The notes under the pieces: generated by a model
What the model was told of the DNA's origin: nothing
The model's database searches: none
What the model saw: only the letters and a program-made list of their open reading frames with translations
Virus record (IMG/VR): IMGVR_UViG_2740892219_000006
Reading direction: 5' to 3' (one strand)
DNA from: a virus
Lineage: Duplodnaviria > Heunggongvirae > Uroviricota > Caudoviricetes
Length of the DNA stretch: 46,408 nt
Translations under genes and position numbers: made by a program
Part shown: positions 4,332 through 46,408 of the stretch, piece by piece
Numbering within the stretch: the first letter of the stretch is position 1
Layout: the number at the start of each line of letters is the position of its first letter

Positions 4332-4440
4332 TATATAATTATAGATTTATATAAAAAGTGCTTTACGGGTGGAAAAAAATTTCCTAAGGTTATACCCGAA
4401 ACCGAGCGATACCCGCCCTGGTTAAACCGGAGATAACCCG
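4332..4440 (+). promoter_or_regulatory. Conserved promoter/leader/RBS cassette, copy A (includes the AT-rich 22-bp motif)
   Basis: About 109 bp nearly identical to 14027-14134 and 21124-21233: AT-rich motif, TTTACG-N17-TAAGGT promoter-like hexamers, conserved leader and GGAG RBS directly before the ATG. Confidence 0.55.
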
Positions 4441-5966: not shown

Positions 5967-7112
5967 TTATGGTCTGCTTTTCTGTGCCAGCTTATCAGCA
6001 CATGTTTTTATCAGATCCTGTAGTGTCCTGGCTGGCAGGTTTGCATCCAGAACGCTGAGTATGCTGTTGTGATCAGCCTGGTCGACTACTTTGCCTGTCG
6101 GTGGTAGTAGCTTGAGCTGAGGATTCAGGTTTTCGTCAAAGCTGATAAGTGCTCTGGCGTTTCTGAGCAGATCAAGAAGTAAGGCTGATATCACATTTTC
6201 CTGAGTCATTGCTGGCAGATTTAGCGTCGCTTTGGTTTTCCCTGTTGCCTTGTCAAACTCCTTGATTAGTTCCTTCCTGTAGTTCGGTTCCGTTAATAGC
6301 CGATTATGCTCTGTTGCCGCGCGGATAATCGTTTTTTCCTGGTACAGTCGTTTAGCCAGATCGCGCTCGTACTGTGTTTTTAACACGCTGCTGATAGCGT
6401 TAAAGGCTTCAATGTAGGCCAGCTTGATATCCTTCACGCCTGGGCCGTCGATACTTTCCATGAGCAAGGTAAATCCGTCTTTTGTCATGCGATAGATTGT
6501 TATTTCGCGGTCGCTTCCTTCCAGCGGTCGTTGCTCTTTAAAGAAATGACGTGCCGCAGCCGTGCGAGGAATGCGTAGCGCATCGATGGCCATAACGATG
6601 GAATTGTTTGTGGTGCTGAATGCCTGGGCAACATCGGCTGAGGTTGTGAGTGGCTCGTTGTTGCACACCTTAATGTAAAACATCGGTTTGGCGTTGAGCG
6701 TATCGACAACCTCACGAGCATTGTTTGGCGAGACGGTAACGGTCGCGGCCGTTTGCGCGTTCTGGTTGAAGTAGCAGTCTTCCAGCCGTTCGAACACATC
6801 CCACGCTTGGTTAGTTTCAAGCATTTTGGCGTGACGTGCAGCCCCGCGTTCTGTCCAGAGGATGAGGGAGCGGACTTTAGGTGAAACTGGATTTTGTGAG
6901 TAGTTTAAAGCTACCCGCAATTCTTTAAGGTCATTACCAACAACTTTGAAAAAGTGTTTCCCTTCAACGAAACGTACTTTGTTCTCATGATGATTCTGGC
7001 GAATACGCACCGGCTCAGTGCCGTAAAGCTGTGCCAGTAACTCGGTAGTAATGACAGGGATTTGGTTATGCAGGATAGGCTGTAGGGTGTTAACGGTCGG
7101 AAGCGTTTTCAT
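5967..7112 (-). CDS. Phage antirepressor (ORF6N-type N-terminal domain plus Rha-like domain)
   Basis: 381 aa; N-terminal ELLAQLYGTEPVRIRQNHHENKVRFVEGKHFF is recalled as ORF6N/Ant-like; central region ITIYRMTKDGFTLLMESIDGPG..IKLAYIEAFN is recalled as Rha-like. Confidence 0.7.
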   Translation of the reverse strand: MKTLPTVNTLQPILHNQIPVITTELLAQLYGTEPVRIRQNHHENKVRFVEGKHFFKVVGNDLKELRVALNYSQNPVSPKVRSLILWTERGAARHAKMLETNQAWDVFERLEDCYFNQNAQTAATVTVSPNNAREVVDTLNAKPMFYIKVCNNEPLTTSADVAQAFSTTNNSIVMAIDALRIPRTAAARHFFKEQRPLEGSDREITIYRMTKDGFTLLMESIDGPGVKDIKLAYIEAFNAISSVLKTQYERDLAKRLYQEKTIIRAATEHNRLLTEPNYRKELIKEFDKATGKTKATLNLPAMTQENVISALLLDLLRNARALISFDENLNPQLKLLPPTGKVVDQADHNSILSVLDANLPARTLQDLIKTCADKLAQKSRP

Positions 7113-7300: not shown

Positions 7301-7594
7301 TGTGATATCTCCGATTAAAGGAACTATCACCACCAATGACGCCAATCAATATGGTGGTGAGACGTACAGGGTTGGCGTAACCGGCACAATGACAAACCCG
7401 GCGCGGATTTCTCCGCCCCCGCACGCCCCACCATAATTTGGGTGTAGCAGTGCTTTACGCATAAAAAAACCGCTAACGCGGTATGCGCCATTGTGCAATC
7501 GGGACGCCAATCCCGACCGTAGATTTTGCTACGGCTCGGAAAGTGTCCACCAATGGCGCATTCATGTCAATACGGCGGGATTTTAACAGAGACA

Positions 7595-7609: not shown

Positions 7610-7680
7610 TTTGAAAAACGGAATTTTCTGCTCATTAAGCGCATGATTTGACCAATCAAATTTGTTTGATACTGAATTTT

Positions 7681-7806
7681 GGGAATCTAATGTGAATGTA
7701 AGGAACCTTAACGTGAGTGTTGGGAACTTAACGTGATTTATTGTTGAAAAAAGTTGCTTTGCATCCAATTTTTTGGATATGATTTGAATGTAGGGAACTT
7801 CATTGT
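7681..7806. promoter_or_regulatory. Direct-repeat array (GGGAAC-TTAACGTGA-like, 3-4 copies) plus palindrome ATCCAATTTTTTGGAT in a putative promoter
   Basis: Repeats at about 7681, 7700, 7720 and 7790; the 16-bp palindrome at 7763-7778 sits between TTGCTT (-35-like) and TATGAT (-10-like). Confidence 0.45.
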
Positions 7807-7869: not shown

Positions 7870-8442
7870 ATGACTGAACTGTCAAAAAACTCATGTTTTT
7901 CAACAATTCACCTAATGATCATAAAAGAACTTAGGCTAGAAAGAGGTGTGCATCAAGGAGTGCTGGCCCAAGCGGCTGGAAAAACACCAAACGCATGGAC
8001 AAAGATAGAGAACGGGCAGTCTGTATTAACGGTTGATGCTCTTTTTGGTGCTTGCTCTGCCCTTAATATTAGCCCAATGAATTTCATGTTGTTGGTAGAA
8101 AAACTGATTCCCGAATTTAATCGCTGTGGTTACTACTTTTTCCCGGGAACAATCGATCAGGACGAGGATAACCTTTTGCCTCTGATGCTGAGTTACTTCA
8201 ACAGCAAGGGGTTTGAAGCATTGAGAAATAGGCCATTCGAAAGAATTAGCATTAGCTCAATGGGATTCTCATTTGGGGGCGGCTTCCCTGTTACTCCAAC
8301 TGCTGTAATGTATTGTTGCGATGAAGCATATAGACATTGGGTCGATAACGGTGCTGATATGGATAATCGAGATTATCTGGAGTCATCAACAGGTCTTGGA
8401 CGGTTTTTAATGAGTGAAGAAACAAAAAAACCGCCCTATTGA
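7870..8442 (+). CDS. XRE-HTH regulator with C-terminal domain of unknown function
   Basis: 190 aa; N-terminal HTH (LAQAAGKTPNAWTKIENGQ); unrecognised C-terminal about 110 aa; GAGGAGG RBS. Confidence 0.55.
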   Translation: MTELSKNSCFSTIHLMIIKELRLERGVHQGVLAQAAGKTPNAWTKIENGQSVLTVDALFGACSALNISPMNFMLLVEKLIPEFNRCGYYFFPGTIDQDEDNLLPLMLSYFNSKGFEALRNRPFERISISSMGFSFGGGFPVTPTAVMYCCDEAYRHWVDNGADMDNRDYLESSTGLGRFLMSEETKKPPY

Positions 8443-8847
8443 GGACGGTTCTTTCGTGCTGATCGGATTCGCGGTCCTTTCAGCATTACGTTGTTGTATA
8501 AACAACCACGCAAGCACAAGCAGCAAGTTGATTTTACCCAAAAGGTAATAATAGTCCACTATTATGCTTCAAAAAATTGTGGTTCTTGTTGTGTCTGCAA
8601 ACTCACAGATTGTGGGTAGGTTACTGATTTTGTGAAAATAAACTGGTTTTTTCGTTTAATTTATTTCCTATTACTAATCTTAAAATAATCGTAAAATACC
8701 TGTGGACCTTCCCGCCGATTCGCACCCGGGCACCGACTTTAGGGGAGGATTTCCTGTTGCCGTACATGCAAGCACAAGCAGCCGTGCTTGCTCTCGCGTT
8801 GTTTTCGTCGGTGGGGATGCCGTGAAACGGCCTGTAAGGGCCATACA

Positions 8848-8970
8848 ATGAAAAAATACTGTATGTGTATTTTTATCGTTGTTACTGGGGCTTTGTTTAC
8901 GCCACATGGGGAGGGTTGGAAGATTACTGATAACGCTCTGAATGTGACGATAAACATTAGCAGCAAGTAG
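8848..8970 (+). CDS. Possible small hydrophobic peptide (40 aa)
   Basis: MKKYCMCIFIVVTGALFT signal-like N-terminus; immediately followed by a strong terminator; weak RBS. Confidence 0.25.
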   Translation: MKKYCMCIFIVVTGALFTPHGEGWKITDNALNVTINISSK

Positions 8971-8975
8971 CGATT

Positions 8976-8998
8976 AGGCCCCTTCGGGGGCCTTTTTT
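8976..8998 (+). terminator. Rho-independent terminator
   Basis: AGGCCCC-TTCG-GGGGCCT followed by TTTTTT. Confidence 0.7.
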
Positions 8999-9008
8999 AT
9001 GGTTGAAT

Positions 9009-9158
9009 TTAAACGCTGGAGCGCATTAAGCCTTTCAGAACTGCTTCACGTACCCATTCTGGCCTGGTGGATAGCAGGGCAAATAAGCGGCCAGCTTGCA
9101 GCCGTTTGAGGTCTATTAGACGAGTTTTTAGTAACCGTGTATATTGTTGCTCGGACAT
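9009..9158 (-). CDS. Small hypothetical protein (49 aa) downstream of parG
   Basis: ATG 9158 with AAGGGG RBS; no recognised domain. Confidence 0.3.
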   Translation of the reverse strand: MSEQQYTRLLKTRLIDLKRLQAGRLFALLSTRPEWVREAVLKGLMRSSV

Positions 9159-9220
9159 AACAAATTCCCCTTGTTGTGTCGCGACGGCCAACAGTTGGCG
9201 CTGGAGGCCGTCACCTTCTC

Positions 9221-9469
9221 TTACTTCTGGTTGTATTGAGCCTTAAGTAACTCAAAAGATTTTGTCAGCACTTCTTTCAATGACATATCCATTGAGCTGG
9301 CGAACGTTTTGTACTCGCGTTTAAATTCAGGGTCGACGTTAAACGCCATTTGTGCCCCACCTGATTTGGTTCTGGTTGGCGTTTCAGTCGGGTCGAAAAC
9401 CTGCGGTTGTTCGATCGATGGCGGTACGCCTTTGCTGTTCTTCTTTGGTGGTTTTGATGGTGCGGCCAT
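9221..9469 (-). CDS. ParG-like ribbon-helix-helix centromere-binding protein
   Basis: 82 aa directly downstream of parA; basic, probably disordered N-terminus and an RHH-like C-terminus (MAFNVDPEFKREYKTFA...); AGAGGGG RBS. Confidence 0.55.
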   Translation of the reverse strand: MAAPSKPPKKNSKGVPPSIEQPQVFDPTETPTRTKSGGAQMAFNVDPEFKREYKTFASSMDMSLKEVLTKSFELLKAQYNQK

Positions 9470-9482
9470 GTGTATCCCCTCT

Positions 9483-9512
9483 TATATAAATCTATAAAAC
9501 TATAATTATATA
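9483..9512. repeat. AT-rich 22-bp motif copy (TATATAAATCTATA / TATAATTATATA) between parA and parG
   Basis: Member of the dispersed motif family also found at 4331, 10191, 10265, 14019, 15231, 15281, 19977 and 21116. Confidence 0.5.
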
Positions 9513-10166
9513 TTACGCGGCAGTAGTCAGAGCCTCAAGCTGGTTGATAATCCCCTGAATAACGTCGTCTGCCTTTTTGCGTGGCGCAACGTATGAGCAC
9601 TCAATGAGGCTTAAGCCCTTATCCTGAGCTTTGCTCAGAGCTGGCTTGTGGGGAATGTACTTATCGACAACAAAGTATGGCGTATTAGCCAGGTACTCTT
9701 GGGCTTCAATATAGTCAGCTTCGTTTTCAGCCGCGCCGGAAAACACCATGCAAATTTTCTTGATTGGTACACCCTTTTTAACGATGCCGTGAGCTGTGTT
9801 AACGGTGGTTTCCAGGTCATCGGTAGAGAATCTGGTTGGCAAAATAACCATATCCAGAAATTCAGAGAGCTTCGGTACTGATTCAGATGCGTAGGCACCG
9901 CCATCGACGATAACCAAGTCGTATACTTCTGATTCGATGATTTTCTGGACTTGTGATGGTGTGCCGCACGGCTGCGCCGCGATTGCTGGTTCGATATTGT
10001 TGGCCATTCTGCGTTGTACCCAACGCGTTACCGTTCCGTTAAGCACATCCATATCGATCAGGCATACATTCCAGCCAGCCTTTGCATAAGCAACTGCTAA
10101 AGCACGGGCAATTGTTGATTTGGTTACGCCGCCTTTTCCGTTGAAAATACCTACAGAGATAGTCAT
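9513..10166 (-). CDS. parA: ParA-family partition ATPase (small type Ib ParA/ParF-like)
   Basis: Deviant Walker A GKGGVTKST near the N-terminus; about 217 aa; start placed at ATG 10166 (GGAG RBS). Confidence 0.8.
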   Translation of the reverse strand: MTISVGIFNGKGGVTKSTIARALAVAYAKAGWNVCLIDMDVLNGTVTRWVQRRMANNIEPAIAAQPCGTPSQVQKIIESEVYDLVIVDGGAYASESVPKLSEFLDMVILPTRFSTDDLETTVNTAHGIVKKGVPIKKICMVFSGAAENEADYIEAQEYLANTPYFVVDKYIPHKPALSKAQDKGLSLIECSYVAPRKKADDVIQGIINQLEALTTAA

Positions 10167-10190
10167 TTGTCGAGACTCCATGTGTTTGAT

Positions 10191-10294
10191 TATATAATTC
10201 TATAAATCTATATTTATAGAACGAGGTAAGCATAACCAACTTTTTGGCGGATGAAAAGCGTTTTATATAATTATATAAATCTATAATCATATAA
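10191..10294. repeat. Centromere/operator-like AT-rich iterons upstream of parA
   Basis: Two direct copies of TATATAATT-TATAAATCTATA about 70 bp apart (10191-10220 and 10265-10294) in the parA promoter region. Confidence 0.5.
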
Positions 10295-10316
10295 GCGGGC
10301 GTTAGCCCGCTTGCAG

Positions 10317-11440: not shown

Positions 11441-11477
11441 GTCTCATCAATCGTGAATGGTGGGTTATTTATACATT

Positions 11478-11595
11478 ACCACATTTAGTGGTTTTCACAT
11501 GGTAAGACGAGAGGTGGACCACAAATAGAAGGTTATTTTTTGTTTTGCTCATTGAAAAACTCACGATATGTGGTTTTAATACCACGTATCGTGGT
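11478..11595. promoter_or_regulatory. Immunity control region: three ACCAC-N5-GTGGT operators with divergent promoters
   Basis: Sites at 11478-11492, 11560-11574 (one mismatch) and 11581-11595; rightward promoter TTGAAA (11552-11557), 17 bp, TTTAAT (11575-11580) overlapped by two operators. Confidence 0.6.
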
Positions 11596-11614
11596 TTTAA
11601 CTGGAGTTCGTTAA

Positions 11615-12109
11615 ATGACCTTTCAGGAGTGGGTTGACGAAAATGGAGGCCAAATTGGTGTTGCCAGAAAGTTTGGCTTTACGTCATCACTGATTGGTGC
11701 CTGGTATCGCTTCGAGAGATTCCCTCGTGCGGATAACCTGACGCTGCTGGTGGCGTATTCGGAAGGCCGGATTAACGTCCAGCAATGGGCGGCAGATTTT
11801 GCCGAACGTCAGCGCCAGCGTAGCGATGGCACATCGGTTCGGCAGAACAAGATCAAAGGGAATCTCCCTGTTAACTGCTTATCAAGGCTGAAAGCGGTTT
11901 TCTCTGAGTTGGGGATGCCTGCGGAGCGTTGCAATCTACGCGGTCCGCGATTCATTGCTCGCTGGAAACACTCACACGTAACCGTTTCAGAGGTTCGTGA
12001 TGCGATTACCGTGCTGGAGCTTAAGAATAAAGATTCCAGCGATATCGAGCTGATTCATAAGGAGATTAGCAACGCCCGGCGTTCAGCACTTGGGAGGCTT
12101 GAGGAATGA
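11615..12109 (+). CDS. Cro-like HTH protein with C-terminal extension
   Basis: First gene of the rightward operon; N-terminal GGQIGVARKFGFTSSLIGAWY resembles a Cro/YdaS-type HTH. Confidence 0.5.
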   Translation: MTFQEWVDENGGQIGVARKFGFTSSLIGAWYRFERFPRADNLTLLVAYSEGRINVQQWAADFAERQRQRSDGTSVRQNKIKGNLPVNCLSRLKAVFSELGMPAERCNLRGPRFIARWKHSHVTVSEVRDAITVLELKNKDSSDIELIHKEISNARRSALGRLEE

Positions 12110-12621
12110 TGATTCTGGCCTTCTTTGGTGATAATCACCAGATTCAATCGAAGGTGGTGCACTACCTTGATCAAACGATTAAAGGATTTGCTATCGATCA
12201 TATTGATAACGATAGCAAACATCTATCTGTAGATCAGAAAATTGGACGTGTGCAGCGACTGGTTGCCAGCCGTAACAGACGTGACACCGTAACAGTAGTC
12301 ACGGGGATAACGGAGGTCATGGAGTACCAGATGTTGCTGCATCGTGGAGCTGTTTTCTGCGTTCTTCCTGGCATTCTGCCAGCAATTCTTGCTCGTGGTT
12401 TTGTCCCTATTGATGAGTCGTTTTTATATGTAACCCCAAGCCGTTCCCTTCTGGATACGGAGGCGAAGCGTCGCATTTATATGATGCCGGACGAGGCATT
12501 TTCTGAATGTTACCGCCGTGAAATGAGGTTGGGTAAACGAGAAGTGTCTGTTGTTCGTGATGGCAGGTTTTTAAGAAGCCGCACGGTGAAAAGCACCAGA
12601 AATGACGGGGGCCATCAATGA
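12106..12621 (+). CDS. Hypothetical protein (171 aa)
   Basis: Start overlaps the upstream stop; no recognised domain. Confidence 0.45.
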   Translation: MMILAFFGDNHQIQSKVVHYLDQTIKGFAIDHIDNDSKHLSVDQKIGRVQRLVASRNRRDTVTVVTGITEVMEYQMLLHRGAVFCVLPGILPAILARGFVPIDESFLYVTPSRSLLDTEAKRRIYMMPDEAFSECYRREMRLGKREVSVVRDGRFLRSRTVKSTRNDGGHQ

Positions 12622-12851
12622 GTAGTTATGTTCGCGGTGCTGCGATGCATTGCCAGAATCCCCAATTCTGGCGCTTTCTGACCAGTAAAACAGGGAAGAA
12701 CATTTCAAACAGTTCTGAGGCCTCTGTGATTCTGCGTGAGTTTTGCGGGATCTCATCCCGTAAAGAGCTGGCAAAGAACTACGCGGCCAGAAGCATGTAT
12801 GTCCAGTTAATCAACGAGTTCAACCTCTTTATCAATGGTAAGGGGCGCTGA
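12618..12851 (+). CDS. Hypothetical protein (77 aa)
   Basis: Translationally coupled ORF in the early operon. Confidence 0.4.
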   Translation: MSSYVRGAAMHCQNPQFWRFLTSKTGKNISNSSEASVILREFCGISSRKELAKNYAARSMYVQLINEFNLFINGKGR

Positions 12852-14026: not shown

Positions 14027-14134
14027 TATATAATTATAGATTTATATAAAAAGTGCTTTACAGGTGGGAAAAAATTTCCTAAGGTTATACCCGAAACCGA
14101 GCGATACCCGCCCTGGTTAAACCGGAGAAATCTG
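14027..14134 (+). promoter_or_regulatory. Conserved promoter/leader/RBS cassette, copy B
   Basis: Near-identical to 4332-4440; ends at ATG 14135. Confidence 0.55.
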
Positions 14135-15202
14135 ATGAATAAACAAGTAATTATTTCTGACTGGATCAACAACCCTAACAGCCTGTTAAGCACTGATACT
14201 GGCTACCTATTACGCCATGTTAATGGTCGTATGGTCAAAAGCGATGAGCACGAAACCTTTTTCTTTGTTGAAGACGATGGGCGCATCTATGAGGATGGTT
14301 ACTCTTATGAAGCCCAAACAGGTTGTATCCCTGCGGAGCTGGTGGACGTAACAGAAGAGCTGCGCAAAGCATGGCTTGAACAGCAGCAGCGCGGAGATGA
14401 TTACGTAAATACCTATCAGGAACGCCAGAACGCGCGTCTTGCCCGATATATTGCTCGTGCAGAAAAAGCCAGAAAAGAAGGAGCGGTAGCGCATAAGCGA
14501 GCGCATGACCTGTTGGATGTGATCCCGTTAGGCCAGCCGATTTTAGTTGACCATTATAGCGCGAAAGGCCATCGCCGCCGTTTGTCTAAAGCTGATGCGT
14601 TATTCAGAAAAGCGTTTGTTGAATGCGAAAGTAAAGCATCACACTACGAGAGCAAAGCCGCAGGTGTTGGTCGTAATGGAATTTCGTCTGATGATCCTGA
14701 TGCGCTATTTAAGTTGCTTCGTAAGCTGCAAGGCTGCATGAAGTCACACGTCAAAATGAAGGCCGCAAATAAGGCCATTCGCAAATACAAAAAAGACCAA
14801 TTACAGCAGCTTTCTGCATTAATCGATCTCAGGTTTACAGAAAGCGAAGCCAAAGAGTTACTGGCCGGAGATTTCTGTGGGTGCATCGGATTCCCTTCAT
14901 ACGCACTGAGCAACAATAACGCCGCAATCAAACGACTACAGAGCCGTATTAAGGAGCTTGAATCGGTCAAGTCTGTAACAGGAGCACAGCGCGAAGAATA
15001 CGACGGCTTTTCTATGGAGATAGATCCAGAGGATAACCGCATCCTGTTTTATTTCCCTGGCAAACCAGAGGCAAACATTCGTTCGCTGCTTAAATCACGC
15101 GCCTTTAAGTGGAGTCCAACCCGTAATGCATGGGTTCGCAAGATTACTCCAAACGCCCTGGCTGATGCCCGATATCTAAAAGAATCGCTATTGAAAGCCT
15201 GA
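14135..15202 (+). CDS. Conserved hypothetical protein (355 aa; possibly DUF3560-like)
   Basis: Long ORF driven by cassette B; the C-terminal half resembles a remembered plasmid/phage DUF3560 pattern, unverified. Confidence 0.55.
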   Translation: MNKQVIISDWINNPNSLLSTDTGYLLRHVNGRMVKSDEHETFFFVEDDGRIYEDGYSYEAQTGCIPAELVDVTEELRKAWLEQQQRGDDYVNTYQERQNARLARYIARAEKARKEGAVAHKRAHDLLDVIPLGQPILVDHYSAKGHRRRLSKADALFRKAFVECESKASHYESKAAGVGRNGISSDDPDALFKLLRKLQGCMKSHVKMKAANKAIRKYKKDQLQQLSALIDLRFTESEAKELLAGDFCGCIGFPSYALSNNNAAIKRLQSRIKELESVKSVTGAQREEYDGFSMEIDPEDNRILFYFPGKPEANIRSLLKSRAFKWSPTRNAWVRKITPNALADARYLKESLLKA

Positions 15203-15212
15203 CAGTAAGCCT

Positions 15213-15310
15213 ACGGCGGGACGTCTCCCCCCGTATATAGAATTATATATTTATATAAATAACGGCGGGACGTCTCCCGCCGTATATAGAATTATATATT
15301 TATATAAATG
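15213..15310. repeat. Tandem duplication (2 x 49 bp) of a GC hairpin fused to the AT-rich motif
   Basis: ACGGCGGGACGTCTCCCGCCG palindrome followed by TATATAGAATTATATATTTATATAAAT, present twice in tandem; first copy has one stem mismatch. Confidence 0.6.
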
Positions 15311-15328
15311 TATAAGGACGCCTCGACA

Positions 15329-15610
15329 ATGAAACGCAAAATTATTAACCCCCAAGATGTGATTAATTTCCTGACCGATCACCCATGTTCAAAAGTGGAC
15401 GTAATCGCGGAGCACATTGGTGTGTCGCAGAACTCTATGCGTTGCAGACTGAGAAGCATGGTTGCCGAAGGACAGATAACAACCAGGAAAATAAATGGTT
15501 GCCTGTACTACTCCGCTAAACCGGAATTGCCATTTGGCATGAATCCTAACTCCATGTTGTTTAACACCTTATTAGCCAAAGTTAAGCCGTTGAGAGGGGC
15601 TGTGGCATGA
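15329..15610 (+). CDS. Small putative DNA-binding protein
   Basis: 93 aa from ATG 15329; segment VDVIAEHIGVSQNSMRCRLRSMVAEGQI resembles a winged-helix/HTH. Confidence 0.4.
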   Translation: MKRKIINPQDVINFLTDHPCSKVDVIAEHIGVSQNSMRCRLRSMVAEGQITTRKINGCLYYSAKPELPFGMNPNSMLFNTLLAKVKPLRGAVA

Positions 15611-19979: not shown

Positions 19980-20013
19980 TATATATTTCTATAATTATAT
20001 AAATATATAGTTA
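19977..20013. repeat. AT-rich 22-bp motif copy
   Basis: TCTATAATTATATAAATATATA; same family as the par-region iterons. Confidence 0.45.
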
Positions 20014-20148
20014 CAACATTCTATGCGCTTTTCTCATGAGCGCACGCATCAACCATGTTTGTCTGATATGCCGCCGCGCCCAAAAATCCTGAATTTATTG
20101 GCTGGGATTTTCGTGCGCGGCGCCACACCAGACAAACAGATCAAATAT

Positions 20149-20224
20149 GGCCCCTTAGCTCAGTGGTTAGAGCAGGCGACTCATAATCGCACGGTCATCG
20201 GTTCAAATCCGGTAGGGGCCACCA
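20149..20224 (+). tRNA. tRNA with CAU anticodon (Met or lysidine-dependent Ile2 type), 3-prime CCA encoded
   Basis: Manually folded cloverleaf: 7-bp acceptor GGCCCCT/AGGGGCC, D-stem GCTC/GAGC, anticodon loop CTCATAA, T-stem ATCGG/CCGGT with TTCAAAT loop; the 5-prime half resembles the E. coli Ile2 tRNA from memory. Confidence 0.85.
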
Positions 20225-20532
20225 ATTCACTCTCACACATAAAGATAAGCGCGGTGGAGTTACTTCCTTCGTGCTCATCTTTATGCGTGCCTGGTGCGCA
20301 TTTCGGGCGAACGTGGGGCTAAGTTACAGGCAGGGCCTGTTATCCGCAAAGGGGTAAAAGCTGGAGCGGCGCGGAACTGTAGCCGTGTTACCAAAACAGC
20401 GTTGTCGGGCGATATCCGGCACACAACAGGCAAGGGCATTAATCAGTCTGGTTAGTGCCCTTTTCGTTGTGTTTGCTGTAGAGCTGGCCAGCGTTATGAC
20501 TGCCGGAGATAAGCGCCGGAGGCACAACTAAC

Positions 20533-21120
20533 ATGGAGGCAATTGCATTGTTTAATCTGATTTATGCAGATCCCCCCTGGGAATACAAAGACAAGTGTAA
20601 GGATGGGAATCGTGGAGCTGGTTTTAAGTATCCAACGATGAAAGCTGAGGATATTGCTCGTATTCCTGTCTGGCAGCTTGCTAATCCTGAATCGTGTTTG
20701 TTGGCCATGTGGTGGGTTCCGACTCAGCCAGAAGAAGCGTTGCTGGTGGTGAAAGCATGGGGATTCAGGCTTATGACCATGAAGGGCTTCACATGGAACA
20801 AATGTGGTAGCCGACAACCAGATAAGCTGGTGATGGGGATGGGGCATATGACTCGTGCGAACAGTGAAGATTGCTTGTTTGCGGTAAAAGGCAAACTGCC
20901 GACCCGCCTTGATGCGGGGATCATTCAGTCGTTTACATCGCCTCGTTTGGAGCATTCTCGGAAGCCTGATGTGGTCCGTGACAAGCTGGTAAAGCTGTTA
21001 GGCGATGTTCCTCGTATTGAGCTGTTTGCTCGCGGAGATTTACCTGATGGTTGGCATGGCTGGGGCAACCAGTGCAATGGAGGTATCCAGTTGCATGATG
21101 CTCTCTGGCAAGTGGTATAG
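20533..21120 (+). CDS. MT-A70-family N6-adenine DNA methyltransferase
   Basis: 195 aa with DPPW motif (LIYADPPWEY) near the N-terminus; GGAGG RBS. Confidence 0.8.
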   Translation: MEAIALFNLIYADPPWEYKDKCKDGNRGAGFKYPTMKAEDIARIPVWQLANPESCLLAMWWVPTQPEEALLVVKAWGFRLMTMKGFTWNKCGSRQPDKLVMGMGHMTRANSEDCLFAVKGKLPTRLDAGIIQSFTSPRLEHSRKPDVVRDKLVKLLGDVPRIELFARGDLPDGWHGWGNQCNGGIQLHDALWQVV

Positions 21121-21123
21121 AAT

Positions 21124-21233
21124 TATATAATTATAGATTTATATAAAAAGTGCTTTGCAGGTGGGAAAAAATTTCCTATAGTGGCAACCAGAAACCGAGC
21201 GATAGTCGCCCTGGTTAAACCGGAGATAACCCG
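21124..21233 (+). promoter_or_regulatory. Conserved promoter/leader/RBS cassette, copy C
   Basis: TTTGCA (21154-21159), 17 bp, TATAGT (21177-21182); the leader differs from copies A/B by clustered substitutions creating AACCAG...CTGGTT complementarity. Confidence 0.55.
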
Positions 21234-45063: not shown

Positions 45064-46408
45064 GTGAGTAAATTATTATTTACGATGACTGACGCCGGGC
45101 GTCAGGAGTTGGTTAATGCCAACAAAACAGGAACAAATAAAGTTGAGATTGTTTCTGTTGGTTTAGGTAGTAGATATTATGTCACGTCAACCTCACAAAC
45201 AAATATAACAGACGAAATAAAACGACTTACCACAATAGGTGGCAAAGTTGTTTCCCCTGATACAATTCATGTAACGGCGAAGGATGATAGTAAAGATGAG
45301 TATGTTGTCCATACAATAGGATTGTATACAAATAAGGGAACGTTGTTTGCTGTATACTCGCAAGAACAAGCAATAATAAATAAAGCATCATCTACTATTG
45401 CTTTAATATCAAGTGACATAGCAATTAAGACTCTTGATACTAAAAATATTACATTTGGTGATATTGAGTTTATTAATCCTCCCGCGACCGAAACTGTTGT
45501 TGGGGTTGCAAGATTTGCTAATGAACAAGAAATTGATGCAGGTACAGATGATTCCCTTGCTGTTTCAGCAAAGCGGCTTAAGCAAGCCATTGTGAAACAT
45601 GAGCAATCACGTAATCATCCTGATGCAACTTTAACCTCAAAAGGCTTTGTTCAACTTAGCAGCGCCACCAATAGCACGTCTGAAACGCTTGCTGCGACGC
45701 CTAAGGCTGTTAAGGCAGCATATGACCTGGCTAACGCTAAATACACCGCACAGGACGCTACCACGGCGCGAAAAGGGATTGTTCAGCTTAGTAGCGCAAC
45801 TAACAGCGATTCTGAGACGCTGGCAGCAACGCCAAAGGCGGTAAAGGCTGCATATGACCTTGCTAACGCTAAATACACCGCACAGGACGCTACCACGGCG
45901 CGAAAAGGGATTGTTCAACTCAGTAGCGCCACCAACAGCACGTCTGAAACACTGGCCGCGACATCGAAAGCTGTAAAGGTGGTAATGGATGAAACGAACA
46001 AGAAAGCGCCCCTGAACAGTCCGGCGCTGACCGGAACACCAACAACACCAACTGCGCCAAAAGGTACTAACAATACTCAGATCGCAAGCACGGCTTATGT
46101 TATGGCTGCGATCGCTGCCCTCGTGGACTCGTCGCCTGACGCACTGAATACGCTGAACGAGCTGGCTGCGGCGTTGGGCAACGACCCGAATTTTGCGACC
46201 ACCATGACTAACGCGCTTGCGGGTAAGCAACCGAAAGATGCCACCCTGACGGCGCTGGCCGGGCTTGCTACTGCGGCAGACAGGTTTCCGTATTTTACGG
46301 GGAATGATGTCGCCAGCCTGGCAACTCTGACAAAAGTCGGGCGGGATATTCTTGCGAAATCGACCGTTGCCGCCGTTATCGAATACCTCGGTTTACAGGA
46401 AACGGTAA
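45064..46408 (+). CDS. Tail fibre protein (P2 gpH / Mu S-like), 3-prime partial: ORF runs off the window
   Basis: GTG start after AAGGA; the sequence closely resembles P2 gpH as recalled, including Phage_fiber_2-type repeats and the C-terminal AVIEYLGLQETV segment; no stop before the window end. Confidence 0.85.
   Translation, partial: MSKLLFTMTDAGRQELVNANKTGTNKVEIVSVGLGSRYYVTSTSQTNITDEIKRLTTIGGKVVSPDTIHVTAKDDSKDEYVVHTIGLYTNKGTLFAVYSQEQAIINKASSTIALISSDIAIKTLDTKNITFGDIEFINPPATETVVGVARFANEQEIDAGTDDSLAVSAKRLKQAIVKHEQSRNHPDATLTSKGFVQLSSATNSTSETLAATPKAVKAAYDLANAKYTAQDATTARKGIVQLSSATNSDSETLAATPKAVKAAYDLANAKYTAQDATTARKGIVQLSSATNSTSETLAATSKAVKVVMDETNKKAPLNSPALTGTPTTPTAPKGTNNTQIASTAYVMAAIAALVDSSPDALNTLNELAAALGNDPNFATTMTNALAGKQPKDATLTALAGLATAADRFPYFTGNDVASLATLTKVGRDILAKSTVAAVIEYLGLQETV
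45640..46000 (+). repeat. Tandem 132-bp coding repeats (about 2.6 copies) inside the tail fibre gene
   Basis: Repeated block encoding KG(F/I)VQLSSATNS.SETLAATPKAVKAAYDLANAKYTAQDATTAR. Confidence 0.85.
46376..46401. other. gix/cix-like invertase recombination site inside the tail fibre gene
   Basis: TTATCGAATACC-TC-GGTTTACAGGAA, close to the Mu gix site as recalled (TTATCCAAAACCTCGGTTTACAGGAA). Confidence 0.6.

Follow-up and report, generated by a model that had tools for sequence, protein, structure and literature searches.

The sequence considered here is a stretch of 46,408 nucleotides from a virus of the Caudoviricetes (IMG/VR record IMGVR_UViG_2740892219_000006); "the window" designates this whole stretch. 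It is a phage-plasmid of the ~48-kb type, in which a 49-bp unit composed of a GC-rich hairpin and an AT-rich motif occurs twice in tandem at 15213-15310. With a probability of about 0.6, this unit is a composite cassette which associates a terminator hairpin with an array of short repeats bound by an 82-residue ParG-like ribbon-helix-helix (RHH) protein of the same element, and which has been duplicated once in this genome. The duplication is a real, minor, lineage-specific strain variant of such a terminator-plus-operator cassette. It is of value for bringing to light a modular regulatory cassette and, of more interest than the duplication itself, a dispersed array system.

Tandem Repeats Finder returns the repeat at 15213-15309, with a period of 49, 2.0 copies, 97% matches and a score of 187; together with the sequence itself, this confirms the tandem reported at 15213-15310 in a preliminary description of the window. 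The order is ACGGCGGGACGTCTCCCCCCG-TATATAGAATTATATATTTATATAAAT-A in copy 1, followed by ACGGCGGGACGTCTCCCGCCG-TATATAGAATTATATATTTATATAAAT-G in copy 2, in each unit, an A precedes the 20-nt hairpin, after which come the 27-nt AT motif and a single closing base. The window has exactly two occurrences of the hairpin and two of the AT motif (0 expected, from 100 shuffles). The repeat is located between the stop codon (15202) of a gene encoding a DUF3560 protein and the start codon of the next gene, which is the ATG at 15329, as annotated in relatives, and not the mechanical start of the open reading frame (ORF) at 15308. The features of the locus are the following:

15213..15261, plus strand: copy 1 (49 bp), the derived one, which departs at two positions from the ancestral single-copy sequence
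15214..15233, plus strand: hairpin of copy 1, CGGCGGGA-CGTC-TCCCCCCG, with a C15217·C15230 mismatch, predicted at -12.6 kcal/mol
15236..15259, plus strand: array of copy 1, three units, TATAGAAT TATATATT TATATAAA
15262..15310, plus strand: copy 2 (49 bp), same sequence as the single copy of Yersinia phage vB_YpM_39
15263..15282, plus strand: hairpin of copy 2, perfect 8-bp stem and 4-nt loop, predicted at -17.8 kcal/mol (z = -3.9)
15285..15316, plus strand: array of copy 2, four units, TATAGAAT TATATATT TATATAAA TGTATAAG, the last of which overlaps the Shine-Dalgarno (SD) sequence
15314..15331, plus strand: translation-initiation block AAGGACGCCTCGACAATG (class II, see below), conserved in a six-way alignment of the repeat site and the parA site from three genomes

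The two copies differ at two positions. The base at 15230 in copy 1 is a C, the corresponding base at 15279 in copy 2 is a G, and the resulting C·C mismatch lowers the predicted stability of the stem from -17.8 to -12.6 kcal/mol. The final base is A at 15261 and G at 15310. The preliminary description had recognized the first difference as a single stem-disrupting change in copy 1, and had missed the second. It had also recorded the AT-rich motif of both copies; that this motif recurs at eight other places in the window had gone unnoticed, and this recurrence explains the AT-rich half of the unit.

This half is an 8-bp repeat, TATAKAWT, in which a 4-bp TATA box is followed by a 4-bp KAWT spacer. 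The window contains nine arrays of three or four such units, the two copies of the repeat included, and units in inverted orientation (TCTATA, the reverse complement of TATAGA) stay in the 8-bp phase of the others. At a lag of 8, the autocorrelation reaches 0.61 for the window and 0.73 for the Salmonella relative. The tandem-run arrays of the window are confined to the early/maintenance region (4.3 to 21.2 kb); the structural region, of about 25 kb, has none. Within the repeat, the arrays of the two copies are 49 bp apart (6 × 8 + 1), which places them one base out of the 8-bp register; the fourth unit reads TATATAAG in the relatives L006 and L008 and in Salmonella. The arrays outside the repeat are:

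4332..4390, plus strand: class I cassette, three-unit array (4332-4355) and sigma70-like promoter block (4358-4390)
9481..9512, minus strand: four-unit array between parA and the RHH gene
10189..10212, minus strand: three-unit array adjoining the ribosome-binding site of parA and ending in a perfect TATAAT; class II
10262..10310, minus strand: GC hairpin (10295-10310) then four-unit array (10262-10293), after a gene of 124 codons and upstream of parA
14027..14085, plus strand: class I cassette 5' of the DUF3560 gene, array (14027-14050) and promoter block (14053-14085)
19980..20011, plus strand: four-unit array upstream of the tRNA-Met gene (20149-20224)
21116..21182, plus strand: class I cassette, four-unit array (21116-21147) and promoter block TTTGCA-17-TATAGT (21150-21182)

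Two arrangements recur among them. In class I (4332, 14027 and 21116), the array is just 5' of a sigma70-like promoter (TTTACA, 17 bp, TAAGGT or TATAGT), whose spacer is palindromic and which is followed by a conserved leader of about 60 nt and the SD sequence AAACCGGAGA. The DUF3560 gene would be transcribed from the cassette of this class at 14027-14085. In class II (parA and the 49-bp repeat site), the array adjoins AAGGAnnCCTCGACAA(A)TG, and the block AAGGACGCCTCGACAATG of the repeat site is also present 3' of the array in front of parA.

Other observations concern the sequences which accompany the arrays. A block of about 105 nt, consisting of the TATA array, the sigma70-like promoter with its palindromic spacer (GGAAAnnnTTTCC), the ~60-nt leader (…ACCGAGCGATACCCGCCCTGGTTAAACCGGAGA) and the ATG, occurs three times in the window (4332-4440, 14027-14134 and 21116-21233) and three times in the Salmonella genome L017. 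It is also present three times, in a diverged form, in the Serratia plasmid pJSRIV006_2 (L018), with apparent compensatory changes (CCAG…CTGG to GGCC…GGCC). It has no match to an Rfam family; it may be a structured 5'-untranslated element and a second operator. The sequence CCTCGACAA lies between the SD sequence and the start codon at 15319-15328 and 10169-10177 (minus strand) and at the equivalent positions in L017 and L018; it is conserved at both class II cassettes in all three genomes, despite different downstream genes. Finally, the tRNA-Met (CAT) gene at 20149-20224, on the plus strand, is inside a mechanical ORF (20023-20322) and appears to be fronted by the array at 19980-20011.

Comparison between genomes suggests how the arrays are read. 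In the Serratia plasmid, six arrays occupy equivalent positions and are made of the unit TAAATA/TATTTA: two are upstream of parA (one of them adjoining a GC hairpin), three precede the diverged class I promoter block and one precedes GGACACCTCGACAATG. When runs of at least three units of a core at 8-bp spacing are counted, TMTAKA gives 8 runs in the window, 7 in Salmonella and 0 in Serratia, and TAAATA/TATTTA gives 0, 0 and 7, respectively; shuffled sequences give 0 in both cases. The unit therefore changes at all sites together, while the RNA polymerases and nucleoid proteins of the hosts are nearly identical, which argues for a reader protein that is encoded by the element and co-evolves with its sites. 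A specific protein of the element is therefore the probable reader of the arrays.

The regions upstream of parA in four distant relatives also contain repeats in 8-bp phase, with a different core in each (GCGA, TGTA and ACGA are among these cores):

L020: repeat units TTTATTTC / TTTAAATA
L021: repeat units TTAGCGAT / TTCGCTAA
L022: repeat units TATACATA / AATATGTA
L023: repeat units AACGATTT / AACGAATT

In L023, a perfect (TTTATTTC)x4-5 run is found at 2019-2052, about 300 bp 5' of parA, the ACGA-core repeats being nearer the gene. This element may combine two types of array, one of them built on the TTTATTTC unit that is also present in L020.

According to an alternative that we regard as unlikely, no dedicated protein reads the arrays: they would be promoter DNA of a generic AT-rich kind (stacked -10-like hexamers or UP elements for the host RNA polymerase) or nucleation sites for silencers of the H-NS type, in which case the duplication would have doubled a terminator and a promoter. 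A TATAAT-like hexamer is indeed present in every unit, a perfect TATAAT closes the array nearest to parA, and the class I array, at roughly -38 to -62 or farther upstream of the -35/-10 block, is in the position of an UP element. TpA-rich DNA is also a preferred substrate of H-NS. However, the arrays keep a strict 8-bp phase; their unit switches at all sites together between related elements, although the RNA polymerase and H-NS of E. coli and Serratia are nearly the same; and the equivalent arrays upstream of parA in more distant relatives contain G and C in their cores (TTAGCGAT, AACGATTT), unlike a -10 element or an H-NS site.

The candidate reader of the arrays is the small protein encoded next to the partition ATPase:

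9513..10166, minus strand: ParA, 217 residues, small type Ib-like Walker ATPase (Pfam CbiA/ParA/MipZ; phrog_164)
9221..9469, minus strand: 82-residue ParG-like RHH protein, directly 3' of parA, candidate binder of the arrays

ParA belongs to the small Walker type devoid of an N-terminal DNA-binding domain. In the AlphaFold2 model of the 82-residue protein, a basic, disordered N-terminal tail precedes an extended segment and two helices. When 1.84 billion representative sequences were searched with a profile, 100 distant relatives of this protein were obtained; among the 79 that were aligned, the Pfam matches are to RHH_10 (22), Antitox_RHH (9), 56B_RHH (3), ParG (2) and RHH_1 (1). The alignment of the deep profile with ParG by hhalign (PDB 1P94, the sequence of which was verified) has a probability of 68% and E=4.7e-5, and is in register across the whole RHH domain. 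The best PDB sequence matches of the family are the RHH proteins 56B and ParG, and the RHH gene is directly 3' of a ParA of about 215 residues in 7/7 genomic contexts. By these profile comparisons, the 82-residue protein is a ParG-like RHH protein; searches by fold added nothing to this assignment.

The TATA arrays are the only substantial repeat family of the par region, where they are found both upstream (10189-10212 and 10262-10293) and downstream (9481-9512) of parA. Across genomes, the residues of the β-strand of the RHH protein vary with the box: A/S-F-N is associated with TATA, N-F-N with TAAA/TATT, N-F-K with GCGA or ACGA, and T-F-N with TGTA. These alternating residues are presumably those which face the DNA. 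Taken with the position of the arrays, this correspondence suggests that they are probably bound by the 82-residue protein.

The arrays could also be specific operators of a regulator of the element other than the ParA-linked RHH protein, but this seems quite improbable. The candidates are the products of ORFs 9009-9191, 11615-12109, 12618-12851 and 2378-2964, or the MarR-like protein encoded downstream of the repeat. Several small uncharacterised proteins are common to all three array-bearing genomes, their divergence in Serratia (33-50% identity) is about equal to that of the RHH protein, and a winged helix-turn-helix gene, that of the MarR-like protein, is directly 3' of the 49-bp repeat. 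However, type Ib partition needs a repeated centromere or operator close to parA, where the arrays are the only candidates of substance, and the RHH-ParA pair keeps its upstream 8-bp arrays in unrelated contexts, for example in L023, where the neighbours are different. Two individual candidates were rejected. The 93-residue MarR-like protein has no homologue in the Serratia element, which bears six arrays, and arrays are present at eight other loci of the window besides the one adjoining its gene. The CI-like repressor has a control region which contains ACCAC-N5-GTGGT palindromes and no TATA units.

As a separate observation, the divergent region between the CI-like repressor and the rightward operon (11441-11614) contains several ACCAC-N5/6-GTGGT palindromes, among which is a 14-bp inverted repeat (11561-11594) that the terminator scan scores too. 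These palindromes are probably CI operators, distinct from the TATA arrays.

The array system, as its sequence features suggest, would be of a kind already known, that of the RHH repeat operators of ParG and omega. In plasmid TP228, parH-OF, to which ParG binds, consists of 4-bp boxes with 4-bp AT spacers; one ParG dimer binds per box, and the operator doubles as the centromere (PMC3130281). Similarly, the window encodes a small ParA-family ATPase followed by a protein of about 80 residues with a flexible N-terminal tail and a C-terminal RHH domain, and it has 4-bp boxes and 4-bp AT-rich spacers, direct or inverted, upstream of the ATPase gene, with one array over the promoter. There are also differences: the box is TATA and not ACTC, so that AT-richness extends to box and spacer alike, an array has only 3-4 units (8 and 12 in TP228), and the arrays are present at nine sites over about 17 kb, where they also front operons unrelated to partition. 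The similarity between the 82-residue protein and ParG is detectable at the profile level only, and the binding in the window is a prediction.

The omega arrays of pSM19035 overlap several promoters, and the partition protein is a global regulator too (PMC9499535). The window resembles this system in having contiguous short repeats, direct and inverted, at several separate sites for an RHH protein (the binding being again predicted). Omega reads 7-bp heptads (WATCACW) in arrays of 7-10 on a Firmicute plasmid, whereas the window has 8-bp units, 3-4 per array, on an enterobacterial phage-plasmid. As omega needs at least four contiguous repeats for full ParA activation, the three-unit arrays of the window, that of copy 1 included, may be operators only.

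Dispersed partition sites are also known in the phage-plasmid N15 (SopAB), which has four separate centromere sites, IR1-4 (PMC7205306). The window likewise has several separate candidate sites for a partition protein on a phage-plasmid, and no single clustered centromere; unlike the window, N15 has a type Ia system with a helix-turn-helix ParB (SopB), single palindromic sites and no RHH-type repeat arrays. The positions of the dispersed sites of N15 are reportedly given by Ravin and Lane (1999) and by Grigoriev and Lobocka (2001). MetJ is another RHH protein, which reads two to five tandem 8-bp metboxes cooperatively, with one dimer per unit. Unlike the system of the window, MetJ is chromosomal, regulates metabolism together with a corepressor, works without a ParA partner and recognizes another box sequence.

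The 49-bp unit is present in a single copy in every relative examined, that is, about 140 plasmids, phages and contigs (3 Yersinia phages, 58 PLSDB plasmids, 70 E. coli genomes among the matches listed, and 9 IMG/VR contigs). With a probe centred on the junction of the two copies, 58/58 PLSDB records had either both halves on one 48-bp span or one half matching, and the junction is absent from IMG/VR and Joint Genome Institute metagenome contigs. Since all relatives have one copy, the duplication belongs to this genome alone, and the locus does not qualify as a variable-number repeat. The variation in copy number that the preliminary description proposed to look for in related genomes is thus not found, which is not the behaviour of a hotspot. 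A possible second, independent duplication was discarded: the sole match among GTDB genomes (L019, a metagenome-assembled genome from water-deer gut) is an unrelated Firmicute terminator, without similarity to the window. Two differences in 49 bp are not unusual with respect to the divergence of about 1.4% from the nearest relative (P about 0.16), and the idea of accelerated change or selection on copy 1 was dropped for this reason.

It is very unlikely that the duplication is an assembly or consensus artefact, a falsely expanded repeat in a genome that is truly single-copy. Such an error is suggested by the fact that no other genome or contig has two copies, by the AT-rich nature of the region and its repetition elsewhere in the genome, by an IMG/VR contig (L008) which breaks exactly at this locus, and by the position of the G to C change in a C-rich run, where consensus errors are plausible. 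However, a false expansion would usually yield identical copies, and these differ at two positions; a tandem of 98 bp is well inside single reads on all platforms and is therefore hard to mis-assemble; and the flanks are collinear with those of the relatives to the base. The contig just mentioned (IMGVR_UViG_2579778982_000025) ends exactly inside the array 3' of the DUF3560 gene, and dispersed AT arrays may thus break short-read assemblies. Annotators should regard them as repeated AT-rich sequence with this capacity.

The GC-rich half of the unit starts, with its first hairpin, 11 nt 3' of the DUF3560 stop codon. The stem CGGCGGGA/TCCCGCCG is conserved among relatives; the loop varies: most of them have TGTC, a minority has CGTC and Salmonella has GAAA. 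The perfect palindrome with a CGTC loop, put forward in the preliminary description, does exist in copy 2 of this genome, but this loop is a minority state, and the TGTC and GAAA loops of the relatives indicate that the perfect palindrome is incidental. In L007, L009 and L010, a C is replaced by a T in the 3' arm, and pairing is retained as G·U in plus-strand RNA only. In the Salmonella plasmid pAR-0407-1, the orthologous hairpin is followed by TTTTAT, the U-tract of a canonical terminator. The order stop codon, GC hairpin, array is also found upstream of parA, in the window (hairpin at 10295-10310), in Salmonella, in Serratia, in L020 and in L022. Like intrinsic terminators, the hairpin of the window has a GC-rich 8-bp stem and a 4-nt loop, lies just 3' of a stop codon and has an A/U-rich sequence behind it; unlike canonical Rho-independent terminators, its E. 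coli/Yersinia version has a tail, UAUAUAGAAUU, which lacks a U run and doubles as the first unit of the array. From these features, the hairpin (copy 2) is most likely a putative intrinsic terminator of the DUF3560 transcript, at which termination may be partial, the A/U-rich tail being the first repeat unit of the array.

The self-complementary arrays on either side of hairpin 2 are predicted to extend it into a stem of about 28 bp (-44 kcal/mol, z = -4.1). In RNA or in single-stranded DNA, such a modelled stem could affect RNA processing or the stability of the repeat. Rfam has no family at the 49-bp repeat, where it gives only sub-threshold matches to microRNA-like hairpins. The 20-mer does not behave as a dispersed palindrome of the repetitive extragenic palindromic or bacterial interspersed mosaic type (REP/BIME): with up to 3 mismatches, only the two tandem copies are found in the window.

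That the palindrome is instead a site acting at the DNA level (a dimeric operator, or a cruciform or recombination site of which the tandem would be a hotspot) and no RNA terminator is barely credible: the 20-mer is perfectly palindromic in this genome, its stem is kept without compensatory changes even in Salmonella and the duplicated arrays could extrude the long ~28-bp hairpin (-44 kcal/mol), but the TGTC and GAAA loops destroy the central symmetry, the C to T variant pairs only as G·U in plus-strand RNA, the 20-mer is found nowhere else in the window and the copy number is invariant in ~140 relatives. Among the roles that the preliminary description had listed for the unit, a duplicated terminator/operator and a protein-binding array fit the evidence, and a recombination hotspot is unsupported.

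In the composite-cassette model, as far as binding, repression or centromere activity, termination and promoter activity in the array of the repeat can be inferred from sequence, the hairpin would form in plus-strand RNA and act as an intrinsic terminator which ends the DUF3560 transcript. The arrays would be bound cooperatively by the 82-residue ParG-like protein, one dimer per unit, and the bound arrays would be operators and possibly dispersed centromere-like sites. The terminator would shield the regulated promoter from upstream read-through, and the array would control or mark the start of the downstream operon, as at parA. After the duplication, the order would be weakened terminator, three boxes, intact terminator, four boxes, SD sequence, ATG. 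The duplication would place two terminators in series and add three extra binding boxes, with a probably stronger insulation. Copy 1 would give no productive transcript, since the intact hairpin lies about 20 nt ahead of any RNA begun there. The duplication probably has little phenotypic effect.

Several results weigh against this model. The hairpin tail of the E. coli/Yersinia version (UAUAUAGAAUU) has no clean U-tract, with fewer than 5 T in 8 bases on the plus strand, and the scan for consensus terminators on the plus strand makes no call at the hairpin; for these two reasons, the efficiency of the terminator is uncertain. There is no good sigma70 promoter inside the array of the repeat, the best being TAGAAT-18-TATAAG. 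The 82-residue protein itself has no match in Pfam or NCBIfam, phmmer against the PDB finds nothing either, and its assignment to the RHH family is transitive, via its distant relatives. The correlation between β-strand residues and boxes is drawn from seven genomes, and the lag-8 periodicity across the whole parA-upstream regions of the distant relatives is modest (z = 1.7-3.2). Lastly, other small proteins are common to all array-bearing genomes (those of the 60-residue ORF at 9009, the 77-residue ORF at 12618 and the 164-residue ORF at 11615), and one of these could be the protein that binds the arrays.

A broader proposal, tentative and somewhat short of an even chance, is that the ParG-like protein is both a global regulator and a dispersed-centromere protein, acting through the nine arrays on at least six early/maintenance units, and that its regulon grows by duplication of a portable cassette. 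If this is true, the transcription units coupled to partition would be parA, the RHH gene, the DUF3560 gene, the operon downstream of the repeat, tRNA-Met and the two other class I operons; in the 49-bp tandem, the duplication of a portable cassette would have been caught in the act. If the ParG-like protein reads the arrays, segregation would be tied to the control of phage and plasmid genes, as it is by omega in pSM19035. No description of a type Ib system which ties partition to gene control in a phage-plasmid was found in the searchable literature, and a literature search found no paper describing the arrays of this phage-plasmid family. The series of boxes TATA, TAAA, TGTA, GCGA and ACGA, together with the paired β-strand sequences, would be a data set for the rules of RHH recognition.

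The window contains an IncFII-type RepA, a type Ib ParA, a CI-like repressor, a c4/ant immunity region and a P2-like tail module. It is 98-99.7% identical to the Yersinia phages vB_YpM_39, vB_YpM_41 and vB_YpM_44, and likewise to a large family of plasmids of about 48 kb. These plasmids are non-mobilizable and are found in E. coli (that of ATCC 25922 included), E. fergusonii, E. albertii and Klebsiella. The phage-plasmid family is present in 71/5,426 complete E. coli genomes (about 1%), and also in Salmonella, Klebsiella and Y. pestis phages. The Serratia plasmid pJSRIV006_2 has a RepA/Rha/ParA/CI/Ref/DUF1064 module in common with the window, and its tail module differs. Phage vB_YpM_HQ103 is not a relative; it is an unrelated peduovirus of 32 kb. 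The genes on either side of the repeat are:

14135..15202, plus strand: DUF3560 protein of 355 residues with a primase-like C-terminal part (Pfam DUF3560 E=8e-31; phrog_6744, phrog_19458; annotated as DUF3560 in relatives)
15329..15610, plus strand: winged-helix (MarR/FaeA-like) protein of 93 residues, first gene of the downstream operon (phrog_1687 E=3e-31; weak Pfam matches to winged helix-turn-helix families)

The homologues of the DUF3560 protein were dropped as a path to diverged relatives, since they are mostly on unrelated conjugative plasmids.

Elsewhere in the window, Rfam gives gathering-level matches to the C4 antisense RNA (7350-7438, minus strand), isrK (7463-7535, minus strand) and ryfA (8702-8998, plus strand). 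C4 and isrK are upstream of an ORF6N/Rha anti-repressor gene (5967-7112, minus strand), which suggests a c4-ant immunity module of the P1/P7 type beside the CI-like repressor. A tandem repeat of 20 bp x 3.2 (TGAATGTTGGGAACTTAACG) is located at 7673-7736, between the c4/isrK RNAs and a helix-turn-helix regulator gene (7870-8442). Another, of 132 bp x 2.6 (83% matches, score 500), is found near the end of the window, at 45639-45979, where it overlaps a minus-strand ORF (45637-46230).

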